Source of the DNA: Vermamoeba vermiformis
Lineage: Eukaryota
Direction of reading: 5' to 3'
Length of the DNA: 64,000 nucleotides
Assembly: GCA_045837725.1 (NCBI GenBank)
Contig: JBEWZL010000278.1
Span: 62,001-126,000 of the forward strand
Shown here piece by piece: positions 2,979 through 43,667 of this stretch; the first letter of the stretch is position 1; each line of letters opens with the position of its first letter. The notes beneath the pieces were generated by a model. That model ran no database searches, was not told the origin of the DNA, and saw nothing but the letters and a program-made list of their open reading frames with translations. Both the position numbers and the translations under genes were made by a program.

Positions 2979-4673
2979 ATGATGAACGAATTGCAATTGT
3001 TAATAGCGTTTCTTGTTCTTGCGGTTGGTAAGGCATCATTTCTTTATTTTATTATTATCGGACCTCAAAATAATTATTTTAAACAGCAAGTTGTTCGTTG
3101 ATCGAGCAAGATCCAAATTTTGCGAATTTATTCGACACGGATTTTGTCAATTTTGGGACAATATATTCAACTGATTTTATTCGGAAAATTGCCAGCGAAA
3201 GAGGAGCCTCAAGACCTCCAATATTCGACAGTTTCAATGAGCCGAAGATCAGACAACAACTTCGCAACAACGTTCTTCTTCTCATTGATAAAATGCTCTC
3301 GATGCAACAAAACAACATGTCGTAAGTAATTTACTGCATAATTTAGCCACAAACGGCTTGCAATTTTTATTGACACGTGTCACTTGTTTTTTCAGATCCT
3401 GTGCAATTCAACGGCTCAGTGAAGCAAAAGCAATCAGAGATATCTATACAGATGATACGAAATTCAACAACCGGCCTCTGCCGCGATATTATCACGTGAC
3501 ACAACAGAAATGGGTTCCAGCAATCTTGGACTCGATGCTCATAAAGTGGGCCGACGCATTGTTTCCAGGAACATGGTTTGCAACAGGTAAAGCTCAACAA
3601 CAACAAGTGCCTAACGCAAACTTTATTGTAAAACATGTCATATTAGGATTCTACTCGATGCGGAGTCCGCAGAGCTATTCACCGGTTTTTTCGTTCGGCT
3701 CCGAGCTTGAACAACCTTTGAACGAGGTCAGCGATGACAGTCATTATATCTACAGCTATGGTCCTAACAATTATTACGGACTTGGTCGAATGCACAATGG
3801 TACATTGTGAACTTCGTATTGTAATTTGATAACTAGCTAAACATTATTTTTTCAGTGTCAATGTGGAAAAACAACACGGATCTGATCAGTTGGGGTGTCG
3901 AACAGAGATTTGTTGAGAATATAACCAGCTATATCAAATCGCGATACAATGAAGAAAAAGCATCGTTTTTGTTGTCAAAGATGACGAGCATCGATCAAAT
4001 TGTTCTTGAACGACAACTTTTGACCATCGCCCACGCGCACACCAACGATAGGGCCAATGCGTAAGCCTATTTTATTATACTATGATGTAAGTATTAACTT
4101 TATCACTAAAGGTTATTGGCTGGTTCTTTCATCGATTCAAGTTGGACCAAATTGAACATTTCCGTCGCGAACGTTTCTGTTGGACAGAGTACGTATTCTG
4201 CGTTGAGATACAAAGTTTTTGGAACTAACATCGTTTACAATGAAGTTATTATTCGTCCTTACGGGGGCAGCAACATGCAATACGAAATGATTGCTGCAGT
4301 GGACTACAACGGGCAGGAAATGACGTTTTTGAGTTTACATGTCGCGACACGCCAAACTACCGTTAGCACCGCGCCTATCTACGTGCTTGTCAACAAGTAC
4401 GTGCCAGACATGGAAATCAAAGACATGACAGTACTGACACAATTGATCGCTGATGGAGCTCTTCTCGATCAACCTCCACCATCGTACACCAAACTGAAAC
4501 GAAGTGTCAACCAGTTGATGACACGTGTCAAACATGTCACTCTCGAAGAACAACGACACAACGAGATACAATCCCAAAAATATCATCGAATGCTTTGCGA
4601 GTCACCTGAACACCATGCCAAAGCCATCGAGTACCTCCAGCAAAAGTTTGGTCTTCAACACTTGTCGTGTTAA
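2979..4673 (+). CDS. Array gene copy 1: secreted ~445-aa protein with putative ADP-ribosyltransferase-like domain; intact
   Basis: Exons 2979-3027, 3087-3321, 3396-3586, 3647-3799, 3856-4060, 4112-4188, 4246-4673 join in frame via GT-AG introns (1338 nt). Signal peptide MMNELQLLIAFLVLAVASCS. The same structure recurs in five paralogs. Confidence 0.85.
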
Positions 4674-4948: not shown

Positions 4949-6652
4949 ATGCAATTGACATTCATATTTATTTTTCTTGCAATTGGTAAGTTGTCGTTTT
5001 TTTAATTATCCTCACATTAATTTCTTTATTAATTTACTATCGGACCTCAAATTAATTTTATTTTAAACAGCAAGTTGTTCGCTGATCGAGCAAGATCCAA
5101 ATTTTGCGATTTTATTCAAAACAGATTTTGTCAATTCCGGAACAATCTATTCAACTGATTTTATTCGGAAAATTGTCAGCGAAAATGGAGCTTCAAGACC
5201 TCCAATATTCGACAGTTTCAATGAACCGAAGATCAGACAACAACTTCGCAACAACGTTCTTCTTCTCATTGATAAAATGCTCTCAATGCAACAAAACAAT
5301 ATGTCGTAAGTAATTTACTGCATAATTTAGCCACAAACGGCTTGCAAAATGATTTATTTGACACGTGTCACTTTGTAGATCCTGTTCAATTCAACGGCTC
5401 AGTGAAGCAAAGGCAATCAGAGATATCTATATAGATGATGCGAAATTCAATAGCAGGCCTCTGCCACGATATTATCACGTGACAAAACAGACATGGGTTC
5501 CAGCAATCTTGGACTCGATGCTCATAAAGTGGACCGACGCAGCATTTCCTGGCGCGTGGTTTGCAACAGGTAAATCACACCGAAATAGAATCGTTTAATT
5601 TAAAATCCTGTTTTCGTTAGGATTCTACTTGCAGCAAACAGCGAGGTACTATTCACCAGTTTTTTCTTTCGGCTCCGAGCTTGAACAACCTTTGAACGAG
5701 GTCAGCAATGACAGCCATTACATATCTTATTATGGTTCTCGTGATTATTACGGACTTGGTCGAATGCACGACAGTACGTAGTTATCTTCGTTCCATTACT
5801 AGCTAAAAATGACGTTCAGTATCAATGTGGAAAAATAACACGGATCTGATCAGTTGGGGTGTTGAACAGAGATTTGTTGAGAATATAACCAACTATATTA
5901 AGTCGCGATACGACGAAGAAAAAGCATCGTTTTTGTTGTCAAAGATGACGAGCATCGATCAAATTATTCTCGAACGACAACTTTTGACCATCGCTCATGC
6001 GCACACCAGCGATAGGGCCAACGCGTAAGCTTATTATATTATATATTTATATAGTATTAACTTACTTTCTTAGGGTATTGGTGGGTTCCTTCATCGATTC
6101 AAGTTGGAGCAAATTCAACATTTCTGCTGCGAATATGTCAGTCGGACAGAGTACGTATTGTTATAACTTTAAGAGGCTAAATTTAAACGGACTTGCCAAT
6201 CAATTCTATTTGCAGTTATTGTTAGCAGTGCCGGGTTACTGACAGACCTCTATTATGGCATGATTACTTCAGTGGACTACAACAAGAAGAAAATGTCATA
6301 CTTGACGCTGCATATCGCAACGCGTCAAACTGTTTTGAAGACTGAATCCTGGAGCTACTGTTTGATCTTCAATAAGTACGTGCCAGACATGGAGATCAAA
6401 GATATGACAGTACTGACACAATTGATCGCTGATGGAGCTCTTCTCGATCAACCTCCACCATCGTACAACAAACTGAAACGAAGTGTCAACCAGTTGATGA
6501 CACGTGTCAAACATATCACTCTCGAAGAGGAGCGACACAACGAGATACAATCCCAAAAATATCATCAAATGCTTTGCGAGTCACCTGAACACCATGCCAA
6601 AGCCATCGAGTATCTCCAGCAAAACTTTGGTCTCCGACACTTGTCGTGTTAA
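4949..6652 (+). CDS. Array gene copy 2; apparently intact
   Basis: Same 7-exon layout; signal exon MQLTFIFIFLAI; the checked junctions are in frame; ends HLSC-TAA. Confidence 0.85.
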
Positions 6653-6967: not shown

Positions 6968-8634
6968 ATGAAATTGACACTCATATTTATTTTTCTTGCA
7001 ATTGGTAAGTTGTCGTTTTTTTAATTATCCTCAAATTAATTGTTATTTTTTAAACAGCAAGTTGTTCGCTGATCGAGCAAGATCCAAATTTTGCGAATTT
7101 ATTCGACACAGATTTTGTCAATTCTGGAGCAAAGTATTCAACTGATTTTATTCGGAAAATTACGAGCGAAATTGGAGCTTCAAGACCTCCAATATTCGAC
7201 AATTTCAACGATCCAGAGATCAGACAACAACTTCGCAACAACGTAATTATTCTCATTGATAAAATGCTTTCAATGCAACAAAACAATATGTCGTAAGTAT
7301 TATACAGTGTAAATTAGCCACAAACGCTTGTAAAATAATTTTTATTTGACACTTTTTGTAGATCCTGTGCAATTCAACGCCTCAGTGAAGCAAAGGCAAT
7401 CAGAGATATCTATATAGATGATGCGAAATTCAATAGCAGGCCTCTGCCACGATATTATCACGTGACACAACAGAAATGGGTTCCAGCAATCTTGGACTCG
7501 ATGCTCATAAAGTGGGCCAACGCATTGTTTCCCGGAACATGGTTTGCAACAGGTAAAGCTCAACAACAACAAGTGCCTAAGGCAAACTTTATAGTAAAAC
7601 ATGTCCTATTAGGATTCTACGCGATCCTGAGTCCACAGAGCTATTCACCGGTTTTTTCGTTCGGCTCCGAGCTTGAACAACCGCTGACCGAGGTCAGCGA
7701 TGATAGCCACTATATCTATAGGTATGGTTTTCGTGATTATTACGGCCTTGGTCGAATGCACGACGGTACGTAGTTATCTTCGTATAATAATAACAAGTTA
7801 AAAATGATTTTCAGTGTCAATGTGGAAAAACAACACGGATCTGATCAGTTGGGGTGTTGAACAGAGATTTGTTGAGAATATAACCAGCTATATCAAATCA
7901 CAATATGACGAAGAAAAAGCGTCGTTTTTGTTGTCAAAGATGACGAGCATCGATCAAATTGTTCTCGAACGACAACTTTTGACCATCGCTCATGCGCACA
8001 CCAACGATAGGGCCAATGCGTAATAATATTATAATATGGTATATGTATGGTATTAACTTGCTTTCTTAGGGTATTGGTGGGTTCCTTCATTGATTCAAGT
8101 TGGACCGAATTGAACATTTCCACTGCGAATATTTCTGTTGGACAGAGTAAGTATTTATCAGAAGGTAAATTGTGACTTTCTAATCGATTCTATTCGCAGT
8201 TATTGTTCGCGGTACCGGGTTAATGACAGACCTCTATTATGGCATGAACTTCAGTGGACTACAACAAGAAGAAAATATCATTCTTGACGCTGCATCTTGC
8301 AACGCATCAAACTGTTTTGAAGACTGAACCCTGGCGCTACAATTTGATCTTCAACAAGTACGTGCCAGACATGGAGATCAAAGATATGACAGTACTGACA
8401 CAATTGATCGCTGATGGAGCTCTTCTCGATCAACCTCCACCATCGAACACCAAACTAAAACGAAGTGTCAACCAGTTGATGACACGTGTCAAACATGTCA
8501 CTCTCGAAGAACAGCAACACAATGAGATACAATCCCAAAAATATCATCGAATGCTTTGCGAGTCACCTGAACACCATGCCAAAGCCATCGAGTACCTCCA
8601 GCAAAACTTCGGTTTTCAACACTTGTCGTGTTAA
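6968..8634 (+). pseudogene. Array gene copy 3 with a 2-nt deletion in the last exon (pseudogene or assembly error)
   Basis: GGCATGAACTTCAGTG at 8241 versus GGCATGATTACTTCAGTG in copy 2; the shifted frame stops at 8325-8327. Confidence 0.7.
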
Positions 8635-9354
8635 AATGACAATAGTTTACCGCTAATAAATATTAGCCTTAGCGACAACGATTTTCTTCGTGACCCCTTG
8701 TTAACGGACGTCCCTTGTATATAATTATAAGCATTGTATAAGTCTCACTTTGCAACAACCCAACCCCCACAACCCCTTTTTGTTCATTTTTTTATAATTT
8801 AGGAGGCGCAGACGTGCGCGAGCGCAACATCCGCACTAACAAAAATTGTGACAGGGACAACACCATACGGTGAAGCCCAACCGATGTCGCACTCCGAGTG
8901 CAAGAGGAGCGCAACGACCGACCTAGAGATGCCTTCTTGATCACATCTCTACTGTCCAGGTAAGTATGAACTATCCAGGTGTTGTTTTTGCTTTTTTGTG
9001 CTTGATCCGGGATAAATATTTTGTGGGATTGGTTGCACGTTGCAAACAGGGGCTTAGAAAAGTACGGACGTACGATGACTATGCAAGAGAAGAAAATCTT
9101 TTTTTGCATGGCTAGATGATGCTAAGAAAAGTTACAACGTGCAAAGCGATCCCCGCTCAGGGGCCTACTTTTTTCTCGAATGCTAAGAAACAGCATAACG
9201 ACCAGGCAGGCTGTAGTTACTATTGCCAGATCGGCGTCGTTGAACGACTTTGTGCTGCGGCAGTCATGTAAATAAAGAAGAAAGGACCGTCGGAGATTCG
9301 GAGATAAATTTATTTATTTAGGGTTAGGGTTAGAAATTTGCTTTTTGGTTTCTT

Positions 9355-15634: not shown

Positions 15635-17508
15635 TCAACACGACAAATGTTGAAGACCAAAGTTTTGCTGGAGGTACTCGATGGCTTTGGCATGGTGTTC
15701 AGGTGACTCACAAAGCATTCGATGATATTTTTGGGATTGCATCTCATTGTGTCGCTGTTCTTCGAGAGTGACATGTTTGACACGTGTCATCAACTGGTTG
15801 ACACTTCGTTTCAGTTTGGTGTTCGATGGTGGAGGTTGATCGAGAAGAGCTCCATCAGCGATCAATTGTGTCAGTACTGTCATGTCTTTGATTTCCATGT
15901 CTGGCACGTACTTGTTGAAGATTATCAAACTGCTCCTTAAGGATGCAGTATTCAAAACAGTTTGACGTGTTGCGATATGCAGGGTCAAGAATGATATTTT
16001 CTCCTTGATTGAGTCCACTGAAGTAATCATGCCATAATACATGTCTGGTGTAAACCCGGCACCACCGCTAACAATAACTGCGAATAGAATCGATTAGAAA
16101 GTCACAATTTCGCTTCTTATAACCATACGTACTCTGTCCGACTGAAATATTCGCAGCAGATTTGTGCGATTTGGTCCAACTTGAATCGATGAAAGAACCA
16201 GCCAATAACCTTTAGAAAGTAAATTAGTACTTATATTCAGTAATCTGTTGCTTACGCGTTGGCCCTATCGTTGGTGTGTGCATGAGCGATGGTCAAAAGT
16301 TGTCGTTCAAGAACAATTTGATCGATGCTCGTCATCTTTGACAACAAAAACGATGCTTTTTCTTCGTCATATCGCGACTTGATGTAATTGGTTATATTCT
16401 TGACAAATTCTTGCTCGACACCCCAACTGATCAGATCCGTGTTGTTTTTCCACATTGATACTGAAAATCATTTTTAGCCTGTTATCAAATTATTATACGA
16501 AGATAACTACATACTGTCGTGCATTCGACCAAGTCCGTAATAATCACGAAAGCCATAATAAGCGATGTAATGGCTTTCATTGCTGACCTCATTCAGAGGT
16601 TGTTCAAGCTCGGAGCCGAAAGAAAATACTGGCGAATAGCTTTTTGCTTTGAACTGCAAGTAGAATCCTAACGAAAACAGGATTTTAAATTAACCGATTC
16701 TATTTTGGTGTGATTTACCTGTTGCAAACCATGCGCCAGGAAACAATGCGTCGGTCCACTTTATGAGCATCGAGTCCAAGATTGCTGGAACCCATGTCCG
16801 GTTTGTCACGTGATAATATCGTGGCAGAGGCCGGCCGTTGAATTTCGCATCATCAATATAGATATCTCTGATTGCCTTTGCTTCACTGAGGCGTTGATTT
16901 GCACAGGATCTGACAAAAAGTAACACGTCAAATAAAATTGGATTTGAACGCGTTTGTGGCTAAATTACGCAGTAAATTACTTACGACATATTGTTTTGCT
17001 GCATCGAGAGCATTTTATCAATGAGAAGAAGAACGTTGTTGCGAAGTTGTTGTCTGATCTTCGGCTCATTGAAACTATCGAATATTGGAGGTCTTGAAGC
17101 TCCGCTTTCGCTGGCAATTTTCCGAATAAAATCAGTTGAATAGATTGTTCCAGAATCGACGAAATCCGTGTCGAATAAATTAGCAAAATTTGGATCTTGC
17201 TCGATCAGCGAACAACTTGCTGTTTAAAATAAAATTAATTTGAGGTCCTATAATAATAAAATAAAATTACAATAATTATATTATTAACCAAATAATTGTT
17301 AAGTTAACTACGACAAATTTTGCAAATTTATTGGCAAGCATAGGAATAACAGCTTGCCTGAATGGCGAATGAAGGAGCGTACGGTCGCATGAAAAAATTA
17401 GTAAATTTAATTTACGTTGAGCATTAAAACTGAAATCGAGAATAATGTGAGGATAATTAAAAACAACTTACCAATTGCAAGAAAAATAAATATGAATGTC
17501 AATCGCAT
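15635..17508 (-). CDS. Array gene copy 4; apparently intact, with enlarged intron 1
   Basis: Signal exon MRLTFIFIFLAI at 17508; the checked exons are in frame; ends HLSC-TGA. Confidence 0.85.
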
Positions 17509-18145: not shown

Positions 18146-19801
18146 TTAACACAACAACTGTCGAAGACCGAAGTTTTGCTGGAGATACTCGATGGCTTTG
18201 GCATGGTGTTCAGGTGACTCACAAAGCATTCGATGATATTTTTGGGACATGTTTGACACGTGTCATCAACTGATTGACACTTCGATTCAGTTTGGTGTTC
18301 GATGGTGGAGGTTGATCGAGAAGAGCTCCATCAGCGATCAATTGTGTCAGTACTGTCATATCTTTGATCTCCATGTCTGGCACGTACTTGTCGAAGATAA
18401 AATTGTAGCTCCAGGGTTCAGTCTTCAAAACAGTTTGACGCGTTGCAAGATGCAGCGTCATGAATGATATTTCCTGTTGCTTGTTGTCCACGGAAGTAAT
18501 CATGCCATAATAGAGGTCTGACATAAACTTGGCACCTCCAACAATAACTGCGAATAGAATCGATTGGCAACTCGCACTTTAACTTTCGCTTATAAGTTAT
18601 AACAATACGTACTCTGTCCGATTGACATATTCGAGTAGAAATGTTGAATTCACTCCAATTTGAATCGATGAAGGAACCCACCAATACCCTAGTAAAGTAA
18701 GTTAATACTCTATTTATATCATTTTATAATATTATTACGCGTTGGCCCTATCGTTGGTGTGTGCATGAGCGATGGTCAAAAGTTGTCGTTCAAGAACAAT
18801 TTGATCGATGCTCGTCATCTTTGACAACAAAAACGATGCTTTTTCTTCGTCATATCGCAACTTAATGTAGTTGGTGATATCCTTGACAAAGTCTTGCTGG
18901 ACACCCCAACTGATCAGATCCGTGTTGTTTTTCCACATCGATACTGAACATCATTTTTAGCTAATTATCTAATTATTATACGAGTTCACAACGTACCATT
19001 GTGCACTCGACCAAGTCCGAAGTGAGTACGAGGACCATAGTAAGTGGCGTAATGGCTGTCATTGCTGACCTCGGTCAGCGGTTGTTCAAGCTCGGAGCCG
19101 AACGAAAAAACCGGTGAATAGCTCTGTGGACTCAGGATCGCGTAGAATCCTAATAGGAAATGTTTTACTATAAAGTTTGCGTTAGGCACTTGTTGTTGTT
19201 GAGCTTTACCTGTTGCAAACCATGCGCCAGGAAACAATGCGTCGGACCACTTTATGAGCATCGAGTCCAAGATTGCTGGAACCCATTTCTGTTTCGTCAC
19301 GTGATAATATCGTGGCAGAGACCGTGCTGTTGAATTTCGCATCATCGATGTAGATATCTCTGATTGCCTTTGCTTCACTGAGGCGTTGAATTGCACAGGA
19401 TCTGCTCGTGTAAAAAAAAATTGCTTCGCAAGTGGTTTGTGGCTAAATTACGCAGTAAAGTACTTACGACATATTGTTTTGTTGCATCGAGAGCATTTTA
19501 TCAATGAGAAGAAGAACGTTGTTGCGAAGTTGTTGTCTGATCTTCGGCTCATTGAAACTGTCGAATATTGGAGGTCTTGAAGCTCCATTTTCGCTGGCAA
19601 TTTTCCGAATAAAATCAGTTGAATAGATTGTCCCAGAATTGACGAAATCTGTGTCGAATAAATTCGCAAAATTTGGATCTTGCTCGATCAACGAACAACT
19701 TGCTGTTTAAAATAATTATTTTGAGGTCCGATAATAATAAAATAAAGAAATGATTACTTACCAACCGCAAGAAACACAATTATCAATTTCAATTCGTTCA
19801 T
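18146..19801 (-). pseudogene. Array gene copy 5; pseudogene with three frame-disrupting lesions
   Basis: +1 insertion near 19324 (exon 3), 1-nt deletion near 18632 (exon 6) and a 35-nt deletion near 18247 removing TLEEQRHNEMQ relative to copy 4. Confidence 0.85.
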
Positions 19802-20198: not shown

Positions 20199-21890
20199 TC
20201 AACACGACAAGTGTTGAAAACCAAACTTTTGCTGGAGGTACTCGATGGTTTTGGCATGGTGTTCAGGTGACTCGCAAAGCATTCGATGATATTTTTGGGA
20301 TTGCATCTCGTTGTGTCGCTGTTCTTCGAGAGTGACATGTTTGACACGTGTCATCAACTGGTTGACACTTCGTTTCAGTTTGGTGTACGATGGTGGAGGT
20401 TGATCGAGAAGAGCTCCATCAGCGATCAATTGTGTCAGTACTGTCATATCTTTGATTTCCATGTCTGGCACGTACTTGTTGACGAACACGTATCTCAAGC
20501 TAATCAGTGTGGTGCGAACGGTAGTTTGACGCGTTGCGACGTGTAATCTCATAATCGTCATTTCCTGCCGCTTGTAGTCCACTGCAGCAATCATTTCGTA
20601 TGGCATGTAGGTCAGCGCGGAAGCGCGCAAGAGGACTAATTACATAGTAAATAAGCCAGATGCAAAAAACCTATTTCAAGACGTACTCTGTCCAACAGAA
20701 ATGTTCGCGACGGAAATGTTCAATTTGGTCCAACTTGAATCGATGAACGAACCCACCAATAACCTTTTAGTGATAAAGTTGATAATTACATCATAGTATA
20801 ATATAATAAGCTTACGCGTTGGCCCTATCGTTGGTGTGCGCATGAGCGATGGTCAAAAGTTGTCGTTCAAGAACAATTTGGTCAATGCTCGTCATCTTTG
20901 ACAACAAAAACGATGCTTTTTCTTCATTGTATCGCGATTTGATATAGCTGGTTATATTCTCAACAAATCTCTGTTCGACACCCCAACTGATCAGATCCGT
21001 GTTGTTTTTCCACATTGACACTGAAAAAATTATGTTTAGCTAGTTATCAAATTACAATACGAAGTTCACAATGTACCATTGTGCATTCGACCAAGTCCGA
21101 AGTGACTACGAGGACCATACAGCGAGGTATAATGGCTGTCATTGCTGACCTCGGTCAGCGGTTGTTCAAGCTCGGAGCCGAACGAAAAAACTGGCGAATA
21201 GCTCTGTGGACTCCGTATTAAGTAGAATCCTATATGCCACCTGTCAATAAAGCTAGTATTAATTATTTTTGTGCCGTACCAGTTGCAAACCACGCGCCAG
21301 GAAATGCTGCGTTGGGCCCACTTTATGAGCATCGAGTCCAAGATTGCTGGAACCCATTTCTGTTGTGTCACGTGATAATATCGCGGCAGAGACCGTCTGT
21401 TGAATTGCGCATCATCTGTATAGATATCTCTGATTGCCTTTGCTTCACTGAGCCGTTGAATTGCACAGGATCTACGAAAAGTGACACGTCAAATAAAATT
21501 GTCAATAAAAATTGCTTCGCAAGTGGTTTGTGGCTAAGTTACGTTGTAAAATACTTACGATATATTGTTTTGTTGATTTGATAGCATTTTATCAATGAGA
21601 AGAAGAACGTTGTTGCGAAGTTGTTGTCTGATCTTCGGCTCATTGAAACTGTCGAATATTGGAGGTCTTGAAGCTCCATTTTCGCTGGCAATTTTCCGAA
21701 TAAAATCAGTTGAATAGATTGTTCCAGAATTGACAAAATCTGTGTCGAATAAATTCGCAAAATTTGGATCTTGCTCGATCAACGAACAACTTGCTGTTTA
21801 AAATAATTATTTTGGTCCGATAATAATAAAATAAAGAAATGATGACTTACCAACCGCAAGAAACGCTATTATCAATTTCAATTCGTTCAT
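20199..21890 (-). CDS. Array gene copy 6; one +1 C in exon 3 (homopolymer error, pseudogene, or rescued by intron retention)
   Basis: Signal exon MNELKLIIAFLAV; TGGGCCCAACGC near 21316 versus TGGGCCAACGC in copy 3; the other checked exons are intact. Confidence 0.7.
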
Positions 21891-22478: not shown

Positions 22479-25361
22479 TTATTGTGGCACGTTAGCAGCA
22501 GGGTATCCGTTTGGATAGTAAGGGTATTGTTGGGTGGGTACCATGTGGGGTGGGTAGTTCGGATGCGGTTGACCTGGCTGTGGGTAACCTTGCATGTACG
22601 GATTGCTATTGTAAGGCATCGGTTGGCCATATACATTAGGTGGCATGCCGTAGTAGCCTTGCGGCGGGTAATAACCTTGGTGTGGTTGTGGCACGAAATT
22701 TCCGTATTGTTGCTGGACTGTCACGTGTTGCGGTGGGTACATCGGCTGTTGAGGAGGATAAGCTGCCATATGGCCTGGTGTAAACGGCTGTGCTTGGACA
22801 AGGTTGGCGTTTAGCTTTGCCGATTGAGGTCCGAACGTGATTGGCTGCATTGGCGAGGGAGCTGAAGTCGTGCCATTGGCTTGCTTCGACACGCCGCTGA
22901 TCGTCTTGACAGGTGTCGGCTCGAGTTCAATTTTAGCGCTGTTATTAACCTTCTCGGGGACTACTTGAGACACGGGTTGGACGACAGGTTGGGCTACTTG
23001 AGGCTGAGCAGATTGTTGCACGCCGTTCGGCTGCGCAGTACTAGCAGGCTTTTGTTGTGTGGCAGCACTGCCATTCTCCGGCAATTGTTGTTCACCAATC
23101 GCTTGAACAGGCTTGGCAACAGCACCAGTAGTCGTTTGAGCTGCCTTAGCTGTGCTATTCGGCTGAGCGACTTGAGAAGTCTGTTGCTGTTCCACAGGCT
23201 TCTCTGTGTTATTTTGAGTAGGCTGGGCAGTTGTGTTCGGTGTAGGGCTTTGAACGGCCTGTTGTTTCTCTTTGAACTTTTGTAAACCGACCCAAACAGG
23301 TGGAGGCGCCATCGGCTTCTTAGGCTGGGCTGTTTCAACGGGTTTTTCTTCCTTCTCTTGCTGTTTCGATGCTGAAGGCTGCTTAGGCTTCTCTTGTTGA
23401 CTATTTTGATGGCCTTGCGTGCCCTTCTTGGGGGCAGCTTTGGGAGCACCAGATTGTTTGGGCTGTGCCTTTGGTGCTTCTTTAGCTGGCGCGGGCGTTG
23501 CGGTCTCGGCAGGTTTGACTGGCTCGACTGGTTTAGCCTTGGCCATCGCTAAAATCTGCGCGTAAGACATCTTCGTCATGCCCTTGCTTTGAGTCAAAGG
23601 ATTGGCTTGTTGGTCACTTGTACTAGTCTCAGTCTTTGTAACTTCGGGCTTAACTTCAGGTGTACTCTCTGGCGTTTGAGTATCTTGCTGTACTTCGTTT
23701 GTAGCATCATTTTCGGTGACCTCGTTAGCAAGCTCGGGATTTTCGGCGATTTCTTCGCCTTCCTTGGGAGGCTCGACTTTGGGCTTCGGAGGCTCCGAGA
23801 ACTTTTGTGCCCAATTGACTGGCTTGCCCCACACACTTGGTGGCGGTGCAACTTCGTCACGTGGCTTTGGTGATGTTCGGACAGGCTAAATTTAGAAAGG
23901 TTAGGGTCAGTTTTCGTCAAAAGCGAGTGATGACTTTTGCAGAATTTTTCTAGTCATGCAGAAAATAAATAAACTAAATATTATTATTAACATACTGCAG
24001 GTGCCGGCTGTCGGTTAGCTCTGTTATCGTTACGTCGTTTTTTCTTCGACTTGACGTCCTGAAATCCCGGTGACTCGGGATCGCACGCGTTAACATTTTC
24101 TTCATTCAACATGTACGCCATTTGTCTATCTTCCTCCTCCATATCTAAACAACAATATTATTACTATATAATGATAATAGTATAATATCGAATTGGTACG
24201 TACTTGCAAGTTCATGCAGCCACAAATCATAGCCAACATTTTGGTACGCGAATTCTTTCTCGTTTTTAGGCTCGTTCAATACTTCAGCCACTAAATCGAC
24301 CACAAGTTCTATTTAAAATAGCATTAGGACTATATTAAAAGAAAATAATATCGATATTGCCTTACCTTGACAAAAGATTAAATAATCCATTTGTTTCTTA
24401 GTATATACAAGGTCGTAATGGTTGCCGTACGAGTAGCATAATTTAATTTGGTTCTTAAATCCGTTGTCTATCGGCGGAATTTCACCGTTGGAATGGATCT
24501 CGAAGTTTACTCTGAAAAAAAAATTAGAAATTTTGTAACGCGTTGGATCTCGCCAGTAAATCATACTTATACAAAAGCGATAACGCCTGAAGCTCTATTT
24601 GACCGCCCCAACAGATGTCCTAATAAAGAAATTAGTATTCGTTCGAGGTAAGTTTTTCGGATGTGGATCTGGTCTTACCAAACTCATAGCATGAAGATAA
24701 TCGTCGAATGTCTGGCCATCAGGCAATGCAACGAAATCTTGAAAGTCTTGGCGGTTTTGACGCAAGTATTCAACGCACTCTAAGCGCACTTTTCGGTGCA
24801 TGACTTGAGTTGCGTAAATGGATTCAGCAATGGCGCGAAACTAAAAGCAAATAATTATAAGCATTAATATTTGTGGCTTATTAAATATAATAGCACGAAT
24901 ATACGAGGGATTAGATTCAAATGCTACCCCAAAATGAAAAGACAATTTGCGATCGCGAACAGAAAATTGTTAGTCAATTCTTTAATTACAAATACAACCA
25001 TAAAATAATGTATTTGCTTATATTAAAGCATCTCAAGTCTTGCAATTAATTATAAGAATTATTCAGTATTAATTTCCGGCCTCATCCATTTTTTATATTC
25101 TTCAGTATTTTTAAATATTCAATAAAAGCTTACCAAACAAGCACCATCCTTAGGCATTTGTTTTCTAACCAATCCTAACGAGTCTAACTTCGCATCCAAA
25201 ATCAAGATCTCGTCGTCTTCATTTTGTTTTGCTGCGGGCTGGCCCGCTGAAGGTATAGAAACATTATTAGGCTCTATAACTGTTTCTATTGTGAATTCAG
25301 AGTTAGTTTGGCCAATAGGCTTTTTGTTGGCTCGCTTCTGCGGTTGCTTTCTTCGACTCAT
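22479..25361 (-). CDS. OTU-family deubiquitinase with long Q/P/Y-rich low-complexity C-terminus
   Basis: Catalytic motifs MPKDGACLFRAIA and LCYSYGNHYDLV across exons; final 451-aa ORF rich in P/Q/Y. Confidence 0.88.
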
Positions 25362-42618: not shown

Positions 42619-43667
42619 TTAAGATTGTTGGATCGTTGTGGTAGAAACGCCAGCGTTGGAGTCCTTAGGCTCAATGATAGTGGTGCTTTGTTCGACGACG
42701 GTAGTAGTGCCAGGACCAGTCAAGCCACTAATAGCTTCTTGGGTCTTCAATTTAGCTTGACCAACGGTCTCTGATAAATGCAACTTCTCGTCGACAACCA
42801 TAGCAGCTTCGACGGTTCTGTCCTTAACAGCTGAGGCGGCCTCAACAGTTCTGTCCTTAACGGTGGAAGCGACTTCGACGGTCTTGTCCTTAACTGCGGT
42901 GGCTCTTTCGGTCAGATGCAACTTCTCATCGATAACGTGAGCAGTGTTAACTGTGGTTTCCTTAATAGTTTGGGCGGTCTCGACGGTCTTATCCTTAACA
43001 ATAGTAGCGACTTCGACGGTCTTGTCCTTGACGACAGTGGCGGCGTCAGAGATCTTTTGAGAAATTCCGAAACGAGCTAGAAAAGAGAAATAGGTCAATA
43101 TTATGCTTTGATGGTTAACAAAATATCGCGCGGAAAGGTAATTAAACTAATGAATGATTATTTGATGCTTACCATCGTATTCAAGAGCCTTTTTCTTGAT
43201 CTCTTCACCGAGCTTGTAGCCAGCGGCCAACAAACTGTTAATAACAGCGGTAGCAGTGCCAGTAGCTTCACTGGTCAATTCTTGCTCGTCGGCGAGCTTC
43301 TTCAAGGGGTCACCAGGGTGTTGGATCTTGCTTTCTTCTTTTTGATAGACAAAGATGGGTTGATCTTGAATAAGAGCATTTGACAACAAGCAAGCTGTTC
43401 TAGCAGCTTCTTCAGTACCGAAGACAATTTCGGCCTTCAAAGTGCCGTCTTCTTGGCTGAGATGCGATTAAATTAGAAAAAATCTTCGTAAAATTGTAAG
43501 GCAATTAATTGAGCGATTATTAATGCTTAATATTGTATTAACGGTAATAATACTTACGAAATCAAGTCGATATGCTCGATCTTGCCGCAGAAAGAGAAGA
43601 AATCATTGACTTGATCAGAAGTGGCATTGTTAGAGACGTTCTTAACGTAAACAGTTCTGGATTCCAT
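42619..43667 (-). CDS. Vip1/BPA1-like RRM protein with LEA-like 11-aa repeats
   Basis: VNDFFSFCGKIEHI, AARTACLLSNALI and LLAAGYKLG..KALEYD motifs; repeated TVEVA.xVKD[KR]. Confidence 0.8.
42780..43040 (-). repeat. Coding 33-nt tandem repeat (11-aa unit)
   Basis: Recurrent GACGGTCTT[GA]TCCTT[AG]AC on the + strand, encoding KDKTVEVA-type units. Confidence 0.8.

Follow-up and report, generated by a model that had tools for sequence, protein, structure and literature searches.

A window of 64,000 nucleotides (nt) of Vermamoeba vermiformis (contig JBEWZL010000278.1 of assembly GCA_045837725.1, positions 62,001 to 126,000 of the forward strand) was analysed; it is eukaryotic DNA with short introns (50–65 nt, GT..AG) and carries six copies of one gene, three on the + strand and three on the - strand, which are 78–89% identical in their DNA. 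Copies 1 to 3, on the + strand, are arranged head-to-tail. The interest of this array lies in a series of motifs in exons 3 and 4 that recalls the start of an ADP-ribosyltransferase (ART) domain and that was picked out in an initial annotation made from the letters alone. The genes belong to an orphan, lineage-restricted family, and the 110–125 or so residues encoded by exons 3 and 4, from PRYYH to GLGRMH, may form a very divergent ART-fold domain and with it a new ART-like family, a reading to which we give slightly less than an even chance.

Copy 1 consists of seven exons and encodes a product of about 445 amino acids (aa); this model is based on conserved splice sites and on homology to P0001 (423 aa) and P0002 (431 aa), both of them full-length relatives from the databases (Table 1). 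A short, hydrophobic first exon resembling a signal peptide is present in all six copies, and P0001 and P0002 begin in the same way, so that the family proteins are probably secreted, to judge from their N-termini. Intron 3 is not present in P0001 or P0002, and the homologous intron contains stops in copies 2 and 4. In copy 1, this intron (60 nt) and that at 4189–4245 (57 nt) are stop-free and have lengths that are multiples of three, as a result of which the copy reads as long open frames across both of them. The lengths of intron 3 (60 nt in copies 1, 3, and 5; 50–51 nt in copies 2, 4, and 6) cut across the strand blocks, which suggests that the history of the array was mosaic or involved gene conversion. 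At the end of copy 3 (8071–8634), the frame is closed if the acceptor is the one corresponding to copies 2 and 4, and it stays open only with an alternative acceptor (intron 8147–8254); at the end of copy 5 (18146–18688), no model leaves the last exons open, and the gene ends early.

Constraint on these genes is evident from the ratio of nonsynonymous to synonymous substitution rates (dN/dS), which is 0.15–0.35 over 15 pairs of copies (0.17–0.35 among copies 1–4) with a dS of 0.22–0.41, and from exons 2, 4, and 5, which contain no stop in the ancestral frame in any copy. The genes are therefore real and under purifying selection. Their relatives are few: when 1.84 billion representatives were scanned in full with HMMER, 20 proteins, mostly exon-sized fragments, passed E <= 0.001 and none passed E <= 1e-30, and word-indexed searches found 4 and 21 proteins, all of which are unnamed or were misnamed by prokaryotic pipelines. 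The family matches no model in Pfam, NCBIfam, PADLOC, or PHROGs. Sequence searches of the PDB gave only chance matches (colicin D, Chd1, and an ABC-transporter binding protein), and a tblastn search of phages with the P0001 domain gave a single match, with E = 3, in a methyltransferase gene. Pattern scans for family loci gave 524 and 249 matches in metagenome contigs and 32 in viral contigs, among which no relative was confirmed.

Expression was followed in three RNA sequencing (RNA-seq) runs labelled V. vermiformis, about 46–48% of each of which was read, and a match to copy 1 was accepted at an identity of at least 97%. At this identity, the only reads on copy 1 were 21 partial ones, at 3861–3904 in exon 5; the loose ends of these reads carry other letters and correspond to a spliced junction between exons 4 and 5, and the reads derive from another, expressed paralogue outside copy 1. 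These junction reads therefore support the splice model of the family and reveal the expression of a relative. As for copy 1 itself, the RNA data give no sign of its expression in the sampled runs, although these stem from at most two samples, from which its silence cannot follow. Small shares of matching words were also present in runs labelled water, aquifer, soil, and other metagenomes; these have no bearing on habitat.

In copy 1, PRYYHVT occupies 3481–3501, with the His codon (CAC) at 3493–3495; VPAILDS occupies 3514–3534, and FPGTWFAT 3562–3585, with the Trp codon at 3574–3576. Past the 60 nt intron, exon 4 continues with GFYSMRSPQSY-SP-VFSF, and its last base is also the end of the feature as first noted. 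In the other copies, PRYYHVT recurs on the + strand at 5464 and 7447 and on the - strand at 16824, 19315, and 21386, and FPG[AT]WFAT recurs on the + strand at 5545 and 7528 and on the - strand at 16743, 19234, and 21304. The initial annotation had described the series as common to all copies, and every one of its elements was indeed found where it had been placed in copy 1 and again in the other five. The spacings of x4, x2, and x5 were also exact for copy 1; that before the Tyr, given as x9, has to be corrected to x10 in the spliced copy. Copies 5 and 6 had been described as out of frame, and in each an additional base does lengthen exon 3 from 191 to 192 nt. In copy 5, this base is an A, located 10 nt upstream of the motif, so that the motifs are in frame with one another but off the frame of the exon start; in copy 6, it is a C, located between IKW and FPG.

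How specific is this series? In the six-frame translation of the window (127,996 residues), the generic pattern of the initial annotation is matched only by the array copies, five of them in one frame, with copy 6 split by its frameshift; of 200,000 shuffles of the copy-1 product that preserve its composition, only one matches it. The same pattern is matched by none of 68 DarT sequences, nor by KptA; since it fails on these true ARTs, its rarity is not diagnostic of an ART. The recurrence of the motifs across six paralogues is likewise weak by itself, because the copies are so similar to one another. More distant relatives are more informative: the His is conserved in 13 of 13 aligned family sequences, as is its [YL]-Y-H-x-[TSG] context, and G-x-W is conserved in 14 of 14. 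In the alignment that includes P0017 (435 aa, 27% identical), ten columns of the 137-residue exon 3–4 region are invariant, among them the P, Y, and H of PRYYH and the G and W of the second motif, and both the His and G-x-W are unchanged down to this relative.

Comparison of the family with ART families was based on profiles. The DarT profile comprised 68 sequences: DarT of E. coli E2348/69, together with 30 loci out of 31 from genomes and 37 out of 54 viral ones, after removal of rows truncated at the end of a contig or identical to another in coordinates and score. The Tpt1/KptA profile comprised E. coli KptA and 8 of 98 phage homologues, picked for spread. No relatives of KptA were found in the viral contigs, and no PF00644 (PARP) proteins were found in E. 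coli K-12 or in 14 control genomes. As a positive control, hhalign aligned the DarT and Tpt1 profiles to each other with P = 0.00017 and a probability of 49%, the alignment being anchored on the His-strand and the helix; an early control, in which a narrow DarT profile was aligned to the single KptA sequence, gave an insignificant result on another segment (P = 0.039).

Both ART families proved to be locally similar to this family in their first strand and helix. With the Tpt1/KptA profile, the top hhalign alignment of each family profile containing the motifs places the family's lPRYYHxT…v..ILDSM.IK on PP..LYHGTa…sI…Gi, with P values of 0.0086 and 0.0075 for alignment A3 of the family, of 0.0027 and 0.0023 for alignment A4 when cut, and of 0.027 and 0.0049 for cuts of alignment A1. 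None of 200 column shuffles reached the observed score of 22.6, the highest being 19.4. Moreover, six of seven single family sequences adopt the same register, with a P of 0.015 for exon 3 of copy 1 and of 0.032 for P0017; A3 against the single KptA sequence gave P = 0.17. With the DarT profile, the same family columns fall on the DarT columns to which the HGT strand of KptA aligns, with a P of 0.02–0.026 for A3 (1 of 120 shuffles reaches the score) and of 0.013–0.057 in seven further variants. The best hhalign probability was 12.7%, and the matches cover only residues 99–122 of KptA and 14–49 of DarT.

A separate observation concerns P0017 alone, which has its best match to the DarT profile at DarT residues 171–200, just past the strand with the catalytic Glu (P = 0.0067; one of the seven single sequences). 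This match is collinear with the N-terminal one and was not reproduced by the family profile.

A language model leads to the same part of the superfamily. For residues 92–216 of P0001, the best named neighbours in the ESM-Atlas were a rifampin ADP-ribosyltransferase family (0.88) and, at 0.87 each, PF12120 (Arr-ms), a DarT/PARP cluster, and PF15633 (Tox-ART-HYD1), and, of the ten best neighbours assigned to a family, eight belong to the family or clan of the top one; for the whole protein, the DarT/PARP cluster appeared at rank 14 (0.82). It is notable that a model blind to the hypothesis should arrive at the small H-Y-D branch, which, according to PMC8120803, has no sequence similarity to other ARTs, and of which Arr and AcrIF11, with Asp as their acid, were recognised as ARTs only from structures. 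The spacing between the His and the Trp/Phe of the family is 26–27 residues, and PMC8120803 and PMC8661411 give 25–30 residues between the His and the Tyr of the small ART branch, as exemplified by H19 and Y49 in Arr, where Asp replaces Glu, and by H8 and Y33 in Tre23.

If exons 3 and 4 do encode an ART fold, the domain would lie on the diphtheria-toxin/PARP/Tpt1/DarT/Arr side of the superfamily, that is, in the H-Y-[EDQ] clade with its variants. The invariant His would end the first strand and contact the ribose of nicotinamide adenine dinucleotide (NAD), the helix VPAILDSM would pack behind it, and the invariant Trp of G-x-W-F would replace the Tyr of the clade and stack on the nicotinamide. 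The aromatic-H-x-[ST] followed by a helix that is typical of the His in this clade is present in the family at the level of sequence, and the equivalence of G-x-W to the Tyr relies on the spacing and on a transitive alignment of low confidence; the G-x-W part by itself matches nothing. Because no acid is invariant in exons 3 and 4, the domain would be an atypical mono-ART, an NAD hydrolase, or a non-catalytic binder of NAD or ADP-ribose. The fold, NAD binding, and any activity are predictions, and a real transferase or NADase activity we consider improbable.

The initial annotation had seen no Glu in the expected last strand, and this agrees with what the wider family reveals: the R-x-H-[N/D] position varies between copies, the residue before the exon 4/5 junction being N or D among the copies and their relatives. 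The candidates for a catalytic acid are the E of S-E-L-E, the E of N-E-V-S, the D of T-D-L-I-S-W, and the invariant D of D-R-A-N, none of which could be placed on strand 5. The last of these, in the context …[YH]-[ST]-x-D-R-A-N of exon 5 and about 140 residues past the His, is the sole invariant acid downstream. One other assignment of residues, the R-S-E reading (with the R of PRYYH, F-A-T as S-T-S, and E-L-E as E-x-E), was dropped: the language-model neighbours are on the H-Y-[ED] side, and the spacings here are 31 and 20–22 residues, whereas those of the R-S-E class are much longer.

An explanation that we hold to be about as probable as the ART fold, and again a little short of even, is that the central domain has a different, undescribed fold, in which Y-H-x-T, I-L-D, and G-x-W-F mimic the start of an ART by chance or convergence; the protein would then be a lineage-specific secreted binder, with no NAD chemistry and with a core formed, for example, by the …ERQ..A..[YH][ST].DRAN helix of exon 5 and the C-terminal beta domain. 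Many of the results that weigh against an ART domain favour this explanation. The similarity to the ART profiles ends after 24–35 residues, the domain minus its first motif is at chance level against both the Tpt1 and DarT profiles (P = 0.38–0.57), and the global alignment to DarT is not collinear. The DarT result also depends on the alignment, with a P of about 0.5 for A1 cuts, of 0.31 for A3 against a narrow 31-sequence DarT profile, and of 0.15, on a different segment, for A3 against the single E. coli DarT. The hhalign scores, moreover, re-measure the motif by which the region was chosen and are not independent of that selection; since very many windows were open to such a choice, chance P values of around 0.003–0.03 are to be expected occasionally. 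No ART family was matched in Pfam at E <= 10 by 36 rows of A1, the four exon translations of copy 1, or P0001, and searches of PHROGs, PADLOC, and NCBIfam with 16 rows of A3 gave only noise (E = 0.03–1.1), again with no ART family. To this may be added the failure of the generic pattern on DarT and KptA.

The structure models had low confidence over the motif region. AlphaFold2, run on P0001 with a 36-row alignment, gave a predicted local distance difference test (pLDDT) score below 50 for residues 120–216 and was confident on the part of P0001 homologous to the C-terminal beta domain of exon 7; on the exon 3–4 read-through of copy 1, which is usable as one frame because the intron is in frame, the mean pLDDT was 39.8, with 128 of 137 residues below 50. 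Foldseek found no match in the PDB at E <= 0.001, in a search that covered the parts of the model outside the motif region. The ESM-Atlas scores are all below 0.9, at which they are leads only, by a method uncalibrated for parts of proteins. In the aligned family, exons 3 and 4 encode no Glu, Asp, or Gln that is invariant, and the T-D-L-I-S-W candidate is D, N, or E among relatives. Finally, constraint on the protein is strongest not in the motif exons but in exon 5, with a dN of 0.026 as compared with 0.058 for exon 3 and 0.151 for exon 4, the least constrained; in exon 5, a Q, A, D, R, and N are invariant in 11 of 11 aligned sequences. Against a different fold, however, two ART profiles and the language model agree on clade and register, the H and W of the motifs are invariant down to 27% identity, and the spacing from the His to the aromatic residue fits the small ARTs. 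The claimed ART resemblance stands for the first elements, recovered by the profiles and the language model, but does not extend to the remainder of the domain.

A variant of the ART reading, contained within its probability, is that the domain is an ART-fold pseudoenzyme, in which the NAD- or ADP-ribose-binding start was kept, the catalytic acid was lost, and the domain became a binding or decoy module. This is consistent with the N or D at the position that a low-confidence extended alignment puts near the last strands and with the variability of the acids in exons 3 and 4, but Tpt1 and other members of the clade are active despite having no canonical catalytic Glu, and the D-R-A-N Asp is invariant. 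ART-like pseudoenzymes are known from eukaryotes, one example being the LRRC9 family (PMC7955679), whereas the use of Asp by Arr and AcrIF11 speaks against this variant, which we judge unlikely. The decay of the array is a separate question from that of the fold. Here the proposal would be that the copies are young pseudogenes or silent genes, the motifs reflecting only recent duplication, and it might draw on the frameshifts in copies 5 and 6, the irregular ends of copies 3 and 5, and the dearth of copy-1 reads in the three RNA-seq runs. This is very unlikely, given the dN/dS values and stop-free exons, the fully open copies 1, 2, and 4, the full-length relatives elsewhere, the paralogue that is spliced and expressed, and the inability of so few samples to show silence.

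Returning to the ART reading, its closest known counterpart would be Tpt1/KptA (PF01885), where the similarity is to the ART-fold C-terminal lobe and the match of its PP..LYHGT…sI…G to lPRYYHxT…v..ILDSM is the best and most reproducible. Tpt1, like the family, has no canonical catalytic Glu. There is, however, no PF01885 match, the family has no counterpart of the N-terminal, RNA-binding lobe of Tpt1, its second motif is G-x-W-F-A-T rather than V-H-L-S, and it is probably secreted and is eukaryotic, with about 445 aa and extra helical and beta domains. For DarT (PF14487), the Y-[HR]-I-T-H-x-D-N-[IL]-P-x-I-L-x-N-G-L segment aligns with Y-Y-H-V-T-Q-Q-K-W-V-P-A-I-L-D-S-M-L, and the DarT/PARP cluster is among the language-model neighbours; but the P value varies from 0.013 to 0.5 with the alignment, neither PF14487 nor the PADLOC DarT model is matched, nothing in the family aligns to the Y-V-P-F-Y-F-T strand or the Q-A-E catalytic strand of DarT, and no antitoxin-like partner was seen.

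In diphtheria toxin and the PARPs (H-Y-E), the order is a His-strand, a helix, a G-x-aromatic-F-[AST] strand, and then a Tyr, and the family would share this order, as the initial annotation had proposed; the family differs in having Trp for Tyr and no identifiable Glu strand, and there is no PF00644 match. The nearest named language-model clusters are those of Arr (PF12120) and Tox-ART-HYD1 (PF15633, e.g., Tre23), which are small domains of similar length with an Asp instead of the Glu and a comparable spacing (PMC8120803 and PMC8661411). These have no hidden Markov model match either, and are likened to the family by the language model and the published spacing, not by alignment; moreover, they are bacterial or phage proteins that act inside cells, whereas the family has a eukaryotic N-terminus resembling a signal peptide and the domain lies in a larger protein. 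Since the models of Tpt1, DarT, Arr, and PARP do not match, the family is not to be filed under any of them.

ART domains are notorious for being difficult to recognise from sequence, and, were this one a true ART, it would add to the superfamily a secreted eukaryotic branch in which Trp replaces the Tyr and the catalytic acid is not fixed, as well as a further case of the copy-number expansion typical of conflict genes. A fuller scenario, which we regard as doubtful, is that the array represents a hitherto unrecognised family of ART-fold enzymes that are secreted and have H-W-(D/N/E) as their active site. Tandem and inverted duplication would have expanded the family in a small eukaryote, and the enzymes would consume NAD or ADP-ribosylate targets and so act as toxins or defence effectors, directed at prey, competitors, or parasites; they might have come from bacterial or phage toxin domains of the HYD type, since built into a larger eukaryotic secreted protein. 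Should the domain not be an ART, the gene would still encode an orphan protein of about 445 aa that is under selection and that offers two sharply conserved sites, H/G-x-W and D-R-A-N, for mutagenesis.

Table 1. Copies of the array gene in the window and parts of copy 1.
Feature	Position	Strand	Description
Copy 1	2979–4673	+	Open throughout
Copy 1, exon 1	2979–3027	+	ATG, open frame, GTAAG donor; hydrophobic signal-peptide-like N-terminus (MMNELQLLIAFLVLAV-G)
Copy 1, exon 2	3087–3321	+	N-terminal helical part; AG/GT boundaries kept in 6/6 copies; collinear with P0001/P0002
Copy 1, exon 3	3396–3586	+	Carries PRYYHVT, VPAILDS, FPGTWFAT
Copy 1, intron 3	3587–3646	+	60 nt, in frame, stop-free; GTAAAG...TTAG boundaries
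Copy 1, exon 4	3647–3799	+	GFY...Y-SP-VFSFGSELE...EVSDDSHY...YYGLGRMHN
Copy 1, exon 5	3856–4060	+	…LERQLLTIAHAHTNDRAN; Asp codon 4047–4049
Copy 1, exon 6	4112–4188	+	Donor GTACGT at 4189; intron position is that of the retained intron in P0004
Copy 1, exon 7 (including stop codon)	4246–4673	+	Beta-rich C-terminal domain and tail
Copy 2	4949–6652	+	Open throughout under the homologous gene model
Copy 3	6968–8634	+	Exons 1–5 open; last intron needs an alternative acceptor for an open frame
Copy 4	15635–17508	-	Open throughout; exon 1 sits 252 nt upstream of exon 2
Copy 5	18146–19801	-	Extra base at 19325 (exon 3); last exons without an open model
Copy 6	20199–21890	-	Extra base at 21316 (exon 3); otherwise open

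The surroundings of the array include a U1 spliceosomal RNA gene (8807–8967, - strand), directly 3' of copy 3, which matches the model over its full length with 78.4 bits, and, between the two half-arrays, a gene of the phosphoesterase family (PF04185; 12772–14346, - strand), two exons of which match at E = 1e-24 and 3.5e-10. Directly past copy 6, an open frame of 468 codons (22479–23885, - strand) is GC-rich (48%) and encodes a low-complexity protein rich in Pro and Gln. Further on, a repeat protein resembling LEA_4 (42619–43146, - strand) scores below the Pfam cut-off (38.5 versus 51.1 bits) and contains a 138 nt direct repeat at 42778–43041. A long gene (52737–59372, - strand) encodes a protein in which a protein-kinase domain precedes a myosin head and which has a long low-complexity tail, an arrangement that we take to be class-III-like.

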